From a virus (Duplodnaviria > Heunggongvirae > Uroviricota > Caudoviricetes), in the IMG/VR virus record IMGVR_UViG_2529293139_000005: a stretch of DNA of 19,601 bases; one strand, given 5' to 3'. Shown piece after piece: positions 4,897 to 14,171 of the stretch. Made by a program: the position numbers and the translations under genes. The notes under the pieces are model-generated. The model saw nothing but the letters and a program-made list of their open reading frames with translations. It did no database searches and was not told the origin of the DNA. The first letter of the stretch is position 1. Each line of letters starts with the position of its first letter.

Positions 4897-5943
4897 TCAG
4901 TTATCCTTTAATAACCTATACAGTTTTGTAGGGGTACATCCTGAGGATATTGTTAAGTTCGTAGCACGCCTTTTCCGCCCACCATCGTATAAACGAAAAC
5001 CAGTAGTAGACGAATTTTCTGCGTCAAAAACTATAGACAGTATAACGTCCCCAGACTTTTTTTGCCATTCATATGTGCCGTTAGTTGGTTTTGTCATCTG
5101 TAGACGCCAGTCAAGAACGCCATCACTTATAGCTGAGAGATCGTTTAGTACGTCTAGTACGGATTGATATCTTTCATTTGGATCTACATGAATGCATTTG
5201 TTTACTATTGTTATCAATTTTTTATGTATGTGGGAAGGATACTCTTTTAATGGATAGGAGCCATTAATTATCGACTCTCTGAGTTGTTCAATCGTTCTAA
5301 ATGCAGATCTTTCTCTTTCAAAATTATCATATCCAACACACATTCTATATATGGTTAATCCTGCCTGATATATGTCATATGTGAAATTATAATCATTTGT
5401 TGATAAAGAAAAATATTCCGGTGGCACATGAAAATGATATCCAAACTCAGGCGCAGCTCTCGATTCCTCATTGACTAACTGAGACAATCCAAAGTCAGAT
5501 AGCATGGCCTCATTTCTGTTTGATATCATGATGTTATTAGGTTTTATATCAAAATGCATAAGACCTTTTGAGTGTATATGATAAAGCCCACTTAAAAATT
5601 GAATAGAATACCGTATTATCTCCCTGCTCGTAAGATTAATCTTTTTTATTAATTGGTTTAGCGAACCATTATGATAAAATGGCATGGCTATATAGATATT
5701 GCTCTCACATTGAGCAGCATACTGAACTTGCACAATATTTGGATGTGCATGTTTATAGAGAAGCCTTGCTTCATTAAAGTAGTCGTCGTGGTTAGTGTTT
5801 TCTTTTTTTTCTATTTCTTTAATCACCAAGTCATGAGCTAGGTGTCTGTCATGAGCCAGATATACTTTTGAAAAACAACCCTGTTCTTCTAGATCACGAA
5901 TCCATTCGAATGCTACATCAGCTCTTTTGTATGGAGTCAGCAT
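4897..5943 (-). CDS. Hanks-type (eukaryotic-like) Ser/Thr protein kinase, 348 aa, with C-terminal extension of unknown function
   Basis: Kinase motifs in order: LVIKE (beta3 Lys), HFDIKPNN (catalytic loop, non-RD), SDFGLS (DFG), PPEY (APE-like); strong GGAGG RBS; AT-rich relative to neighbours. Confidence 0.85.
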   Translation of the reverse strand: MLTPYKRADVAFEWIRDLEEQGCFSKVYLAHDRHLAHDLVIKEIEKKENTNHDDYFNEARLLYKHAHPNIVQVQYAAQCESNIYIAMPFYHNGSLNQLIKKINLTSREIIRYSIQFLSGLYHIHSKGLMHFDIKPNNIMISNRNEAMLSDFGLSQLVNEESRAAPEFGYHFHVPPEYFSLSTNDYNFTYDIYQAGLTIYRMCVGYDNFERERSAFRTIEQLRESIINGSYPLKEYPSHIHKKLITIVNKCIHVDPNERYQSVLDVLNDLSAISDGVLDWRLQMTKPTNGTYEWQKKSGDVILSIVFDAENSSTTGFRLYDGGRKRRATNLTISSGCTPTKLYRLLKDN

Positions 5944-6398
5944 CCCCTTACCTCCGCAGATAGTGCAGCCAAAACAGCTTCATTTGTTTCAGTTGTAAAA
6001 CCAGAATTATCGATTCCATTTATATTACGGTGTGACTTCAATATTTCTTTATACTCGATCTCTGTTAGGTTCAATGATGACTTCATACCAGATTTTCTAA
6101 TGGTGTAATATCTTCTTACATCACTGCTTGAAAATGCTTCTTGAATAACAGCTTCTATATAAAGGCGGTCAATGCTAAGATTATCAGAGTTTGATTCAGT
6201 AACGCGTATAGCAGCTAATTCAACATTATATAAATTAAGAATGTCGAGGATGTTATTTCGCACATACTTTAATTTTTCTGGTGTGTCTAAGGTCGAAGGT
6301 ATTTTAATAACATCAACACATTTGAGTGCAGACTCATCAGTGCAATATACAACAAAAGATGTAACTTTGGGCGCCGCCCTAACACCTAGTATTCTCAT
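5937..6398 (-). CDS. Hypothetical protein (153 aa), first gene of the kinase cassette, translationally coupled to the kinase
   Basis: ORF 5937..6398(-); its TGA (5939..5937) lies 2 nt inside the kinase ATG (5943..5941); no recognisable domain; AT-rich. Confidence 0.65.
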   Translation of the reverse strand: MRILGVRAAPKVTSFVVYCTDESALKCVDVIKIPSTLDTPEKLKYVRNNILDILNLYNVELAAIRVTESNSDNLSIDRLYIEAVIQEAFSSSDVRRYYTIRKSGMKSSLNLTEIEYKEILKSHRNINGIDNSGFTTETNEAVLAALSAEVRGC

Positions 6399-6478: not shown

Positions 6479-7171
6479 TTATCCATGTTTCCTGTATGTT
6501 TGCGGCATGCTCCCAATAACTTTCCCGAAGATAAACACCCGGTTCATCTCGTCTTTCTCGATTGGGTCCCACGGTGAGTAGCTCTTGTTATCAGAGATAA
6601 CCAGCAGTTTATCCTTCATCATTTGCAGGCGCTTAACATGGGCTGTGTCGTCATACAGAAACGCATAGATACCATCACCGTCGAAAGATTTAACAGTGAT
6701 ATCAACGAACAGAAGATCACCTGGTTCGATCGTTCCTGACATGCTGTCACCGCGTACGTTAATGATGCGGATATTTTCTGCCTTCCTGCCATCGAACATG
6801 TGACGAGCATCGTCAAACGAGTACTCAACCGAGCGTAGAACTTCTACAAACTCACGGTTGATGACTCCCGGCCCGGCACTCACTTCTATATCAAGAACGT
6901 CAATCTTGAAGTATTTGGGATGGTTGGCAGCAGGCTTCCCTGATTGTTGACCGTCATTTCTCATCGGGCCTATGCCTGATGAGAGCCACTCTGTTCGAAC
7001 ACCCAATGCATTAGCTATTTCAACAATTTTTGTTGAGCCGCGTGCGTTGCCGCTTGTCAGTCTCCAGATTGTGGGTTGAGCTACGCCAGACGCCTTTGCA
7101 AGAGCGCCTTGAGACATTCCAGATTGTTCCATCGCTAGGTTTAAGCGATCAGCAAGAGTTTCTTTTTTCAT
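6479..7171 (-). CDS. cI: CI-type prophage repressor: N-terminal XRE-family HTH plus C-terminal LexA-like S24 autopeptidase domain (about 230 aa from Met at 7171)
   Basis: HTH MSQGALAKASGVAQPTIWRL; S24-like segment with RGDSMSG (Ser) and downstream VKRL (Lys); no SD before ATG 7171 (possibly leaderless like lambda cI); the ORF-track start at 7207 would fall inside the promoter. Confidence 0.85.
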   Translation of the reverse strand: MKKETLADRLNLAMEQSGMSQGALAKASGVAQPTIWRLTSGNARGSTKIVEIANALGVRTEWLSSGIGPMRNDGQQSGKPAANHPKYFKIDVLDIEVSAGPGVINREFVEVLRSVEYSFDDARHMFDGRKAENIRIINVRGDSMSGTIEPGDLLFVDITVKSFDGDGIYAFLYDDTAHVKRLQMMKDKLLVISDNKSYSPWDPIEKDEMNRVFIFGKVIGSMPQTYRKHG

Positions 7172-7180
7172 AAGTTTTAA

Positions 7181-7250
7181 TTTATACGCTTGCGTATTGA
7201 TGGTCAAAACACGTTTTGCTATTGATTGGGTTAATACGCATTGCTATTAT
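7181..7250. promoter_or_regulatory. Divergent PRM/PR promoter and operator (OR) region between cI and cro
   Basis: Plus-strand PR candidate: -35 TTGATT 7222..7227, 17-bp spacer, -10 TATTAT 7245..7250; minus-strand PRM candidate -10 TATAAA (plus 7181..7186); near-palindrome ATACGCTTGCGTAT; TTGCTATT at 7216 and 7241. Confidence 0.5.
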
Positions 7251-12275: not shown

Positions 12276-12386
12276 GTAATAATCACTTTTTCAACCGTGC
12301 TATAGTAAGAAAGTTAGGTAAGTACAATAAAATTATCTATCCTGAACGAAGCGTCCTGAGCTATGGTTTTACTATAGAGACTGCCA

Positions 12387-12710
12387 ATGGATGCTGGCGT
12401 TCTCGTTCTAGCAGTTCAACAATACCCAATCACAAAACAATTCACTGATAACGAACTTTGCACACTCGCCTGGTTATGGCGAGCAGGGAATGTGATGTTA
12501 ATTACCTACCAGAACGTTACTCCTCTTCTTCAGGTTGCGGAGCATCGTGAAGCTGGTCGCTTCACTTCTATCGAGCAAGAATACCCCCAGATACTCAATA
12601 AGGCACAGGCAATCCTTGCCAGAGAAACGGCACATGTAAAATTCCGGCCGTGGCAGGATGATAAGTGGAGTCGAGTTTTGCCGCATTTACGTTCGGATCG
12701 ATTACAGTAG
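12387..12710 (+). CDS. Hypothetical protein (107 aa)
   Basis: ORF 12387..12710(+); weak RBS; no family recognised. Confidence 0.3.
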   Translation: MDAGVLVLAVQQYPITKQFTDNELCTLAWLWRAGNVMLITYQNVTPLLQVAEHREAGRFTSIEQEYPQILNKAQAILARETAHVKFRPWQDDKWSRVLPHLRSDRLQ

Positions 12711-13171
12711 ATTCCAATTAACAATGAGAAACACATAGCCACCCCGTGGTATTGAAACCATATAATGTTGGATTTGAAAACAGATCTTTTTCCATGTATT
12801 AATAACTACATCCCCGCGAGTGATTCAAAAAGGAGGGCCCAATTTTGTCCGAGTTTTTGTATTCCCCCGCATGCCGCTGCGGAGCACTACATCTGAGTGT
12901 CTGACTAGGGGATAAAATTAGACTGGATAGTGAGAAGAAAGTGGCGTGCTAGGCTGTGCCGAGTGCTACCAGTACACCTTGGGGGTGTGCAGCTTTCGCC
13001 GAGACTGTAGTGGGTATCGGTTAATGCACGAAAAACCGAGAGGTCAGACAACCAATTTGCCGTAGGATTGTTTCCGGTGCGATACCGGTGTACTAACTGA
13101 AAGCAATGCGAAAAAGCATAAACTCGGTCCTTCAGTCGCCCTACACACTATTTACTAAGAAGGGCTAAAGC

Positions 13172-13528
13172 ATGGATACAATTATCACATGGATGGGAGA
13201 TCGTCTGTTGGGGTGGATAACAAACAAATCCGATCTGCGGCAGAGGGCAATCACTGGATTAACTCCTGCGATTTATTCAACAATTTTATATACTGAAAAA
13301 TTAAAACGTGGTGAGCCTAATAACCCAAACGAAGAAGAAAAACTTTATAGGCTTTGGTATGAAGCGTCTTCCCAAGTCGTAGACTTTGATCGAGAGCTGG
13401 CTAAAAGATGTTTAGATAAATCAGAATATTGGCTTCATTCTGAATTATATAGCCCTGAGAAAGTTGGAGAGCTAAACATTTCTTTGGTTGGTATGAAGGC
13501 AACGCTTGAAGGAATAAAGCACAATTAA
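13172..13528 (+). CDS. Hypothetical protein (118 aa)
   Basis: ORF 13172..13528(+) with GAAGGG upstream of ATG; no family recognised. Confidence 0.45.
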   Translation: MDTIITWMGDRLLGWITNKSDLRQRAITGLTPAIYSTILYTEKLKRGEPNNPNEEEKLYRLWYEASSQVVDFDRELAKRCLDKSEYWLHSELYSPEKVGELNISLVGMKATLEGIKHN

Positions 13529-13715
13529 AACCTTTGATTTGCGATAATCAACTCGCCATAATCATGTCATCGGAGCCTGAACAACTCCGGTGACTTCTGC
13601 GCTAAACGGGGACGTTTATGCGCACACACAATCCAAACTCTCTTCTCCCTCCACAGATGCAGAAATGCACCTGCGATATATTGTATCCAGCGTTTGACCT
13701 CTGCGGAGGTGAAGC

Positions 13716-14171
13716 GTGAATCTCCCACAAGATGGCATCAAATTACATCGCGGTAACTTCACCGCTATCGGTCGGCAGATCCAGCCTTATCTGGAGGAGG
13801 GCAAATGCTTTCGCATGGTGCTTAAACCGTGGCGTGAGAAACGCAGTCTTTCCCAGAATGCACTCAGCCACATGTGGTACAGCGAAATCAGTGAATACCT
13901 CATCAGCAGGGGTAAAACGTTCGCTACTCCAGCTTGGGTAAAAGATGCTCTCAAACACACATATCTCGGTTATGAAACCAAAGACCTGGTTGATGTCGTA
14001 ACCGGTGATATCACCACTATCCAGTCGTTACGCCATACCTCCGATCTTGATACCGGAGAGATGTATGTCTTCCTGTGTAAGGTTGAAGCCTGGGCGGTGA
14101 ATATTGGCTGCCACCTGACTATTCCGCAGAGCTGCGAGTTCCAGCAGCTCCGTGACAAGCAGGAGGCGTAA
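13716..14171 (+). CDS. ybcN: YbcN-like nin-region protein (151 aa), GTG start
   Basis: GGAGG RBS 13705..13709 before GTG 13716; [57 protein letters not shown]... matches my recollection of DLP12 YbcN. Confidence 0.75.

Follow-up and report, generated by a model that had tools for sequence, protein, structure and literature searches.

The orphan large RNAs GOLLD, ROOL, OLE and HEARO, on which cryo-electron microscopy work has been reported (bioRxiv 10.1101/2024.12.08.627333), are non-coding molecules of several hundred nucleotides (nt), often carried on prophages, with many covarying helices, invariant unpaired bases and functions that cannot be deduced from sequence. Here, we describe an element that shares these properties. 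It occupies positions 12810–13140 (plus strand) of a 19,601-nt stretch of DNA, hereafter referred to as the window, that represents a DLP12-like lambdoid prophage of Escherichia coli (IMG/VR record IMGVR_UViG_2529293139_000005). The element lies between the genes ybcK and ybcN, in a stretch free of long open reading frames (ORFs), and this stretch encodes an RNA fold that is specific to one strand, constrained in length, supported by covariation and mobile as a unit. Unlike GOLLD, ROOL, OLE and HEARO, to which it has no sequence or structure match (cmscan, E ≤ 10), the element is smaller (331 nt), unusually rigid in length, confined to lambdoid prophages of Enterobacterales and not located beside tRNA genes.

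In type III toxin-antitoxin systems (ToxI-ToxN, CptIN and TenpIN), the antitoxin RNAs are tandem repeats of 34–36 nt that are cut by the toxin. Most relatives of the element resemble these systems in their order of (putative) promoter, RNA gene, intrinsic terminator and a protein gene reached via read-through, and some of the downstream proteins, those with two transmembrane (TM) segments, look like potential toxins. However, the element has no repeats, the downstream proteins vary and show no relationship to ToxN/AbiQ endoribonucleases (they match neither ToxN nor Abi proteins nor any PADLOC model), and the copy in the window has no terminator and is followed by the gene of a predicted soluble four-helix protein. 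E. coli prophages also encode small RNAs, such as DicF, IpeX (of DLP12), AgvB/AsxR and the Pas RNAs (PMC4104026; bioRxiv 10.64898/2026.05.13.724894). These, too, are accessory RNA genes of lambdoid prophages that have a promoter and a terminator of their own, and several are located close to rusA and the nin region. They are, however, base-pairing RNAs of 50–150 nt with simple hairpins (the RNAs of the Pas preprint, bioRxiv 10.64898/2026.05.13.724894, are other and far smaller ones), whereas the element is a pseudoknotted, multi-domain, 331-nt structure found across genera, with no apparent seed region or target. No description of the element was retrieved from the literature, which was searched by topic as well as by sequence words. 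It is apparently an undescribed RNA family, which membership tests assign to none of the known classes; the novelty lies in the family and not in a mechanism.

The 1440-nt block that contains the element (12276–13715) shares 99.9% identity with chromosomal prophages in many strains, and is also present in two isolated phages, Turner and IdasGreatGrand. In the chromosomal prophages, the block is preceded by exo-bet-gam, a cI-type repressor gene, cro, ydaT/cII-like, O, P, ren, emrE, ylcJ and ybcK (encoding a serine recombinase) and is followed by ybcN, ninE, ybcO, rusA, ylcG, Q, a porin gene and lysis genes. The original prediction, made from the letters of the DNA alone, described two ORFs here, of 107 amino acids (aa; 12387–12710) and 118 aa (13172–13528), with no ORF of 60 aa or more between them (12711–13171), and proposed that the intervening DNA might encode a structured RNA, serve as a recombinase attachment site or consist of decayed gene remnants. 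Both ORFs are as described, and the longest frames between them are 48, 43 and 39 aa; a 70-aa reverse ORF (12530–12742) overlaps the left edge of the ORF-free stretch by 32 nt. The stem CCGGT-gcgat-ACCGG that had been pointed out is present as well, at 13074–13088. On their own, the absence of ORFs over 460 nt and a 5-bp stem are unremarkable and lie within chance expectation. What goes beyond chance is the sharp-edged conservation of 331 nt with unrelated flanks, together with base-pair covariation.

Loci carrying the element were gathered by pattern scans of IMG/VR and of metagenomes, and by look-ups around homologues of the 118-aa protein. Full-length copies are present at 91 loci and represent 33 distinct sequences, all 329–331 nt long, with pairwise identities down to 78%; these sequences form about seven lineages that differ by up to 22%. 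Conserved non-coding homologues, for which the original prediction had suggested looking, thus exist, and their flanks are unrelated. For example, Klebsiella phage Kp4856-1 is 77.5% identical to the window over the element only, the genes on either side being unrelated. The named hosts of the prophages are E. coli, Klebsiella, Enterobacter bugandensis and Obesumbacterium proteus. Among 5426 complete E. coli genomes, 159 (ca. 3%) contain the element, in one copy each, and most E. coli copies are at least 95% identical. Conservation is block-wise, with invariant runs such as GAGAGGTCAGACAACCA and CATAAACTCGG separated by variable segments, and invariant blocks of 18–30 nt are kept while both flanks are replaced. 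The element was absent from the species-representative genomes of GTDB, where two pattern scans gave no matches and then 21 chance matches in GC-rich genomes, and was not found in a search of plasmids. A looser two-block pattern added only four loci in IMG/VR, all of them chance matches, and the scan of metagenomes yielded no family other than this one. Truncated copies were also observed in IMG/VR: one (L018) begins at alignment column 96 (column n corresponds to window position 12809 + n), with L035/L067 and L068 also listed, and in L068 the element gives way to unrelated sequence beyond column 307. Decay or interruption of the element is thus possible.

Folding of an alignment of 24 sequences by RNAalifold predicted 82 base pairs, 13 of them with compensatory changes. 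The model was refined by eye in one region, which includes the previously noted hairpin and a long-range pairing, giving 16 helices with 85 pairs. The refined model was then scored on the 24 and on all 33 sequences, using as controls models in which the 3′ partners were slid by 1–3 columns, as well as 500 shuffles. Standard pairs made up 96.9–97.3% of the cells of the refined fold, compared with 33–47% in the slid controls. Double-sided changes affected 18 pairs (1–6 in slid controls), the covariation score was 0.215–0.227 (0.04–0.056 in slid controls) and none of the 500 shuffles reached the observed covariation. In a strand test, G·U combinations filled 312 cells and A·C combinations 19, and pairing was 96.9% on the plus strand against 86.5% on the minus strand. 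Since G·U pairs are tolerated, A·C combinations are rare and pairing drops on the opposite strand, the fold belongs to the plus strand. Of the options offered by the original prediction, the structured RNA is therefore the one borne out, and the stem singled out there is itself among the covarying parts.

The helices with the best support are helix 7 (A-U to G-C at three pairs), helix 9, helix 12 (four pairs), helices 13 and 15 and the pseudoknot; helices 6, 7, 9, 12 and 13 each contain one to four compensatory pairs, with 94–100% pairing. The 5′ domain (12810–12913, helices 1–5) is closed by an invariant AUCCCC/GGGGAU helix (12810–12815 with 12908–12913). It holds an invariant AAGGAGG sequence and a 19-codon, UUG-initiated pseudo-ORF, and columns 73 and 84, in the region of helix 5, show a compensatory change from G-C to A-U. 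The 3′ domain (12921–13137) is closed by the long-range helix 6 (12921–12926 with 13132–13137). Within this domain, compensatory changes are present in helices formed by 12937–12942/12992–12997, 12947–12954/12958–12965, 12998–13006/13013–13021 and 13035–13040/13123–13128; it also contains an invariant hairpin, GGU-CAGACA-ACC (13042–13053), and a hairpin AUGC-GAAAAA-GCAU (13106–13119). The stem of the original prediction corresponds to helix 15 (columns 265–269 with 275–279), which is CCGGU/ACCGG in the window and CCGGA/UCCGG elsewhere. Its pair 269/275 is U-A in 13 sequences, A-U in 13 and C-G in 7, and Klebsiella-type copies have another hairpin, AGCAUC/GAUGCU, in the same place.

Helix 10 is formed by AGUAC at 12971–12975 and GUACU at 13090–13094 (columns 162–166 with 281–285). 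As this long-range pairing crosses helix 7, it constitutes a pseudoknot. The arms read AGUAC/GUACU in the window, GGCUC/GAGCC in relative L008 and GGUUC/GAGCC in Klebsiella. Pair 164/283 is U-A in 13 sequences, U-G in 11 and C-G in 9, and pair 165/282 is U-A in 19 and A-U in 13; the outermost pair, 166/281, has no support in the 33-sequence alignment. Many bases of the element, including long stretches, are both invariant and unpaired.

Known RNA classes do not account for this fold. Scanning of the whole window against Rfam 15 at the gathering score gave no matches, and a cmscan search of positions 12600–13300 at E ≤ 10 gave a single one, to CyVA-1 (13.5 versus 41.4 bits), outside the element; a scan of four divergent relatives likewise gave nothing on the element. 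These results agree with the earlier failure to recognize an RNA family by eye. ARAGORN detected no tRNA or tmRNA genes in the window. Tandem Repeats Finder reported no tandem arrays at a score of 30 or more, and no direct or dispersed repeats are present within 12810–13140; the absence of repeats rules out ToxI-like, CRISPR-like and iteron-like elements. A sponge of the CsrB/RsmZ type was rejected because, by alignment and fold, there are only four conserved GGA motifs, mostly in stems and junctions, and no CsrB, CsrC or Rsm match at E ≤ 10. A decayed gene, which the original prediction had also considered, was rejected for the ORF-free stretch: stop codons occur in all six frames, variable columns are spread over the three codon phases without periodicity (49, 43 and 47), lineages differ by indels of 1 and 2 nt and none of nine stop-free segments matched a PHROG family. 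The same idea proved right for the neighbouring 107-aa ORF (see below).

A promoter-like motif precedes the fold (12774–12803, plus strand). It consists of a −35-like TTGAAA (12774–12779), a spacer of 17–18 nt and a −10-like TATTAA/ATTAAT (12797–12803). In an alignment of upstream sequences from 17 lineages, most have GTTGAAW-N17-TTTAAT (or TTAAAT)-N6-A, where the final A is the first paired base of helix 1, and the transcription start would thus lie at about 12810. Just 5′ of the proposed −35 element, the window and its relatives share a second motif (12735–12772), AACCATATGTTGTATAG, which is conserved and reads CCATATAATG in the window; it could be an alternative −10 element, an UP element or an operator. 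At the other end, most lineages have a GC-rich hairpin and a U-run 5–15 nt after the core. A terminator scanner confirmed this terminator in relative L048 (9451–9468), and its hairpin varies in a compensatory manner (CCACC/GGUGG and CCGCC/GGCGG). In the window, the terminator scan found none at this place. The window lineage, the Obesumbacterium copy (L092) and loci L094, L064 and L065 have no terminator and run into the 118-aa ORF 31–36 nt later, the linker in the window being 13141–13171.

The genes around the element vary. Upstream, there is a full or truncated antirepressor gene, a gene for a MazG-like pyrophosphohydrolase or other genes, and downstream, at least six unrelated genes have been found, encoding the 118-aa protein (or a truncated version of 60–66 aa), a 178-aa protein with two TM segments, proteins of 183 aa (in Klebsiella), 177 aa and 95 aa, and DUF1367. 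Closely similar RNAs precede different genes: the RNA of L094, with 118-aa cargo, is 97% identical to that of L034, with a terminator and two-TM cargo; that of L008 (two-TM) is 98% identical to that of L011 (DUF1367); and that of L037 (two-TM) is 98% identical to that of L005 (95 aa). Conversely, some lambdoid prophages that do not have the RNA encode distant homologues of the cargo, at 51% identity for the 118-aa protein and 33–51% for the two-TM protein, which rules out an obligatory linkage of RNA and cargo. Since RNA sublineages cross-cut the cargo and cargo homologues occur without the RNA, the RNA appears to be an independent module, whose only recurrent associations are the same orientation and the close spacing of the next gene.

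We consider it probable, though well short of certain, that the ORF-free DNA is a gene for an undescribed structured non-coding RNA, most likely an autonomous, exchangeable "moron" in the nin region of Enterobacterales lambdoid prophages. Such an RNA gene would act on its own, probably through partner binding at the invariant unpaired stretches. Transcription would start at the first paired base, directed by the −35/−10-like motif, and in most lineages would stop at the intrinsic terminator, which should yield a discrete RNA of ca. 350–365 nt from the repressed prophage. In the window lineage, which has no terminator, the RNA would double as the 5′ portion of the mRNA that encodes the 118-aa protein. 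The RNA may bind a protein or another partner through its invariant loops, independently of any particular neighbour, because the same RNA sublineage precedes unrelated genes. Its location among cargo of the exclusion and defence type suggests a role in phage–host or phage–phage conflict. As in a moron, the element is inserted between conserved phage genes and has variable neighbours.

Several observations weigh against this interpretation. Helices 1, 2, 8, 14 and 16 are invariant or nearly so and are hence uninformative, and the folding energy of the single sequence does not stand out (z = −1.1). As there are only about seven lineages, the cell counts overstate the number of independent compensatory events. 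Transcription of the element is deduced from its sequence. As regards the promoter and terminator expected of a moron, the promoter-like motif has the correct geometry, but a σ70 consensus scan does not list it, and its putative −10 element (TTTAAT; TATTAA in the window) does not have the A that is almost universal at position 2, which leaves the start site uncertain; a terminator is seen in relatives and not in the window. Alternatively, processing of the long pR transcript could release the RNA. For a trans-acting role, modularity is the sole argument. Finally, the next gene always has the same orientation and starts about 22–110 nt after the RNA, which usually leaves no room for its own promoter; such constant orientation and tight spacing fit a cis-acting leader equally well.

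The main rival is therefore a cis-acting riboswitch or attenuator leader, whose fold would sense a ligand, a protein or an infection signal and gate read-through into, or translation of, the next and potentially toxic gene. We regard it as a realistic possibility, although on balance an unlikely one. It would account for the invariable order of promoter-like motif, RNA, (terminator) and gene on one strand with tight spacing, and, as in known leaders, a conserved covarying fold stands upstream of a gene, with the terminator of relatives directly after the long-range closing helix 6. This helix ends in CAGUCG followed by CC, and visual inspection suggests that, once the helix opens, GUCGCC might base-pair with GGCGGU, the 3′ arm of the terminator, in the manner of P1/terminator switching; this alternative pairing is, however, a candidate without covariation support. 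The many invariant unpaired bases would suit a binding pocket. Some of the cargo (the 178-aa two-TM protein) resembles membrane effectors, but the SLATT label for the two-TM cargo was not confirmed by Pfam, NCBIfam or PADLOC. Unlike known leaders, the element has no common downstream function, since it precedes at least six unrelated families that include an ordinary nin gene (DUF1367); three deep lineages, that of the window among them, have no terminator; at 331 nt and 16 helices, it is above almost all known aptamers in size; no Rfam riboswitch matches it; and homologues of the cargo genes function in this genomic region in the absence of the RNA. A related and more doubtful idea is that the RNA is a portable sensor module, riboswitch-like or protein-responsive, placed before interchangeable effector genes (for two-TM membrane proteins, the four-helix 118-aa protein and others), which the prophage would express only in response to a specific cue such as superinfection. 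It is less likely than such a sensor that the element is a ribozyme of a new kind or self-assembles in the manner of GOLLD/ROOL RNAs.

Explanations that do not invoke a functional RNA fare worse. The element might be conserved without a function of its own, as a recently spread, hitch-hiking spacer or recombination "linker" that reflects shared descent only. The high identity of most E. coli copies (at least 95%) would agree with this, as would the mosaicism of lambdoid phages with their conserved junction sequences. We nevertheless find it improbable: length stays within 2 nt in lineages down to 78% identity, substitutions fall in compensatory helix pairs, the invariant 18–30-nt blocks persist despite replaced flanks, and the slid-partner controls, in which relatedness is preserved, show four to five times less covariation. 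Even less probable is a gene for a small protein or leader peptide, in which AAGGAGG, the UUG codon and the 19-codon frame (12845–12904) would specify a micro-protein and the remainder would be an untranslated region. The Shine-Dalgarno-like motif is strong, invariant and properly spaced, with UUG following 6–8 nt later, and the frame is open for 12–19 codons in all copies. However, a stop at codon 13 interrupts it in L007, L016 and L017 (U at column 72), the ratio of non-synonymous to synonymous changes is about 2:1, several changes compensate one another within pairs of helix 5, as fits an RNA structure and not coding, and 270 nt of conserved structure would be left unexplained. A DNA-level site, be it the attachment site of the large serine recombinase YbcK that the original prediction had entertained, an origin or an array of protein-binding sites, is scarcely credible. 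In the window, the element does lie 535 nt downstream of the recombinase gene, but prophages of Klebsiella, Obesumbacterium and Enterobacter and other E. coli prophages carry it without a recombinase gene nearby, and phage 4A7 carries ybcK without the element. Moreover, a length of 331 nt, the lack of internal repeats and a strand-specific conservation that tolerates G·U and not A·C would be unexpected for such sites.

On its left side, the RNA gene favoured here is neighboured by the 107-aa ORF (12387–12710, plus strand), which matches Pfam P22_AR_C (PF10548; E = 1e−15, above the curated cutoff) as well as PHROG anti-repressor Ant families, and whose product is named "P22AR C-terminal domain-containing protein" in RefSeq. 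The original prediction had seen no recognizable family in either ORF; this does not hold for the 107-aa ORF and stands for the 118-aa ORF, which matches only PHROG families without assigned function. The 107-aa ORF is 93% identical to residues 152–249 of a 249-aa antirepressor with Bro-N and P22AR_C domains that is encoded in the same place in a relative (L009, 2673–3422). We interpret it as the 5′-truncated, C-terminal remnant of a Bro-N/P22AR antirepressor gene, because the N-terminal, DNA-binding Bro-N/ANT domain was not found in it and is present in the full-length relative. It thus resembles phage P22 Ant and the Bro-N antirepressors in its P22AR_C domain and differs from them in having no Bro-N domain. 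The ORF is preceded by a spacer 3′ of the ybcK stop codon (12276–12386). The first 212 nt after this stop codon (12276–12487) include the first codons of the 107-aa ORF. In phages 4A7, D2 and 1W, the same stretch stands behind ybcK, with 85.8% identity, and leads to an esterase gene. The presence of this stretch before other cargo suggests that a recombination joint likely lies within the old antirepressor gene.

On the right side, the 118-aa ORF (13172–13528, plus strand) belongs to phrog_12412. Its homologues are 51–99% identical, with 44 residues invariant down to 51% identity, and a large uncharacterised family, comprising 351 representatives, includes it as a remote member; searches against Pfam, NCBIfam and PADLOC matched no family. 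AlphaFold2 predicts an up-down four-helix bundle (predicted local distance difference test score of 80), for which structure searches of the PDB returned generic helical bundles only. We take the 118-aa ORF to encode a genuine conserved protein. In one E. coli sublineage (L007, L013, L015 and related loci in IMG/VR), it is cut to 60–66 aa (phrog_8527), and at some loci with the shortened ORF, the mini-frame within the RNA also has a stop while the RNA fold is intact; the RNA seems to outlive the neighbouring 118-aa gene. The 178-aa protein, with TM segments at its N- and C-termini, follows the RNA terminator in four RNA sublineages (L048, L069, L107, L124 and others). Its label as a SLATT 2TM protein, which comes from the UniRef name of one 38%-identical homologue, found no confirmation in Pfam, NCBIfam or PADLOC.

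The slot between ybcK and ybcN is a point of cargo exchange. As had been suspected, related prophages and phages hold different cargo here: in phage 4A7, the slot contains an esterase gene, and a PD-lambda-1 defence gene is among the other cargo that phage PhiR26_1 carries in this general region. Downstream of the 118-aa ORF, positions 13534–13719 form a region of the phage 82 type that is 92% identical to X92588 (phage 82). It includes a promoter-like sequence, TTGATT-17-CATAAT (13534–13562), and an inverted repeat, CGGAG-N9-CTCCG (13567–13587), both annotated as putative in X92588, the latter as a "possible regulator-binding site", as well as a 33-aa ORF of the orf33/ylcH type (13618–13719) that matches orf33 of X92588; all are on the plus strand. 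Elsewhere in the window, a 348-aa eukaryote-like Ser/Thr protein kinase (Pkinase, E = 1e−46) and a 153-aa ORF are encoded on the minus strand (4897–6398), directly downstream of the cI-type repressor gene (6479–7207), a position that is occupied by rexAB in lambda. The pair, which resembles the Stk exclusion kinase of phage 933W, is missing from an otherwise near-identical prophage of strain E7476. In the record of phage Turner (PP925837.1, locus L002, 5226–5526), two hypothetical ORFs of 43 and 39 aa are annotated across the RNA element; these calls are probably spurious. As several phage records call short hypothetical ORFs across the element, the present analysis also provides a correction to their annotation.

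New large and intricate RNAs are rare, and one in the heavily mined species E. coli was unexpected. Its rigid length, its pseudoknot and its long invariant unpaired stretches point to a demanding molecular function and not to a simple base-pairing small RNA. The element moves freely among unrelated accessory genes in a defence and exclusion hot spot of lambdoid phages, and genetic work on it is feasible because at least two phages that carry it, Turner and IdasGreatGrand, can be cultivated. Even as a stable leader only, it would constitute a useful new Rfam family. Should it prove to be a sensor or regulator of prophage cargo genes or a decoy in phage–host conflict, a field dominated by proteins would gain an RNA-based layer, and as a portable sensor, it would be an RNA trigger for exclusion or abortive-infection cargo, a design that has so far not been described.

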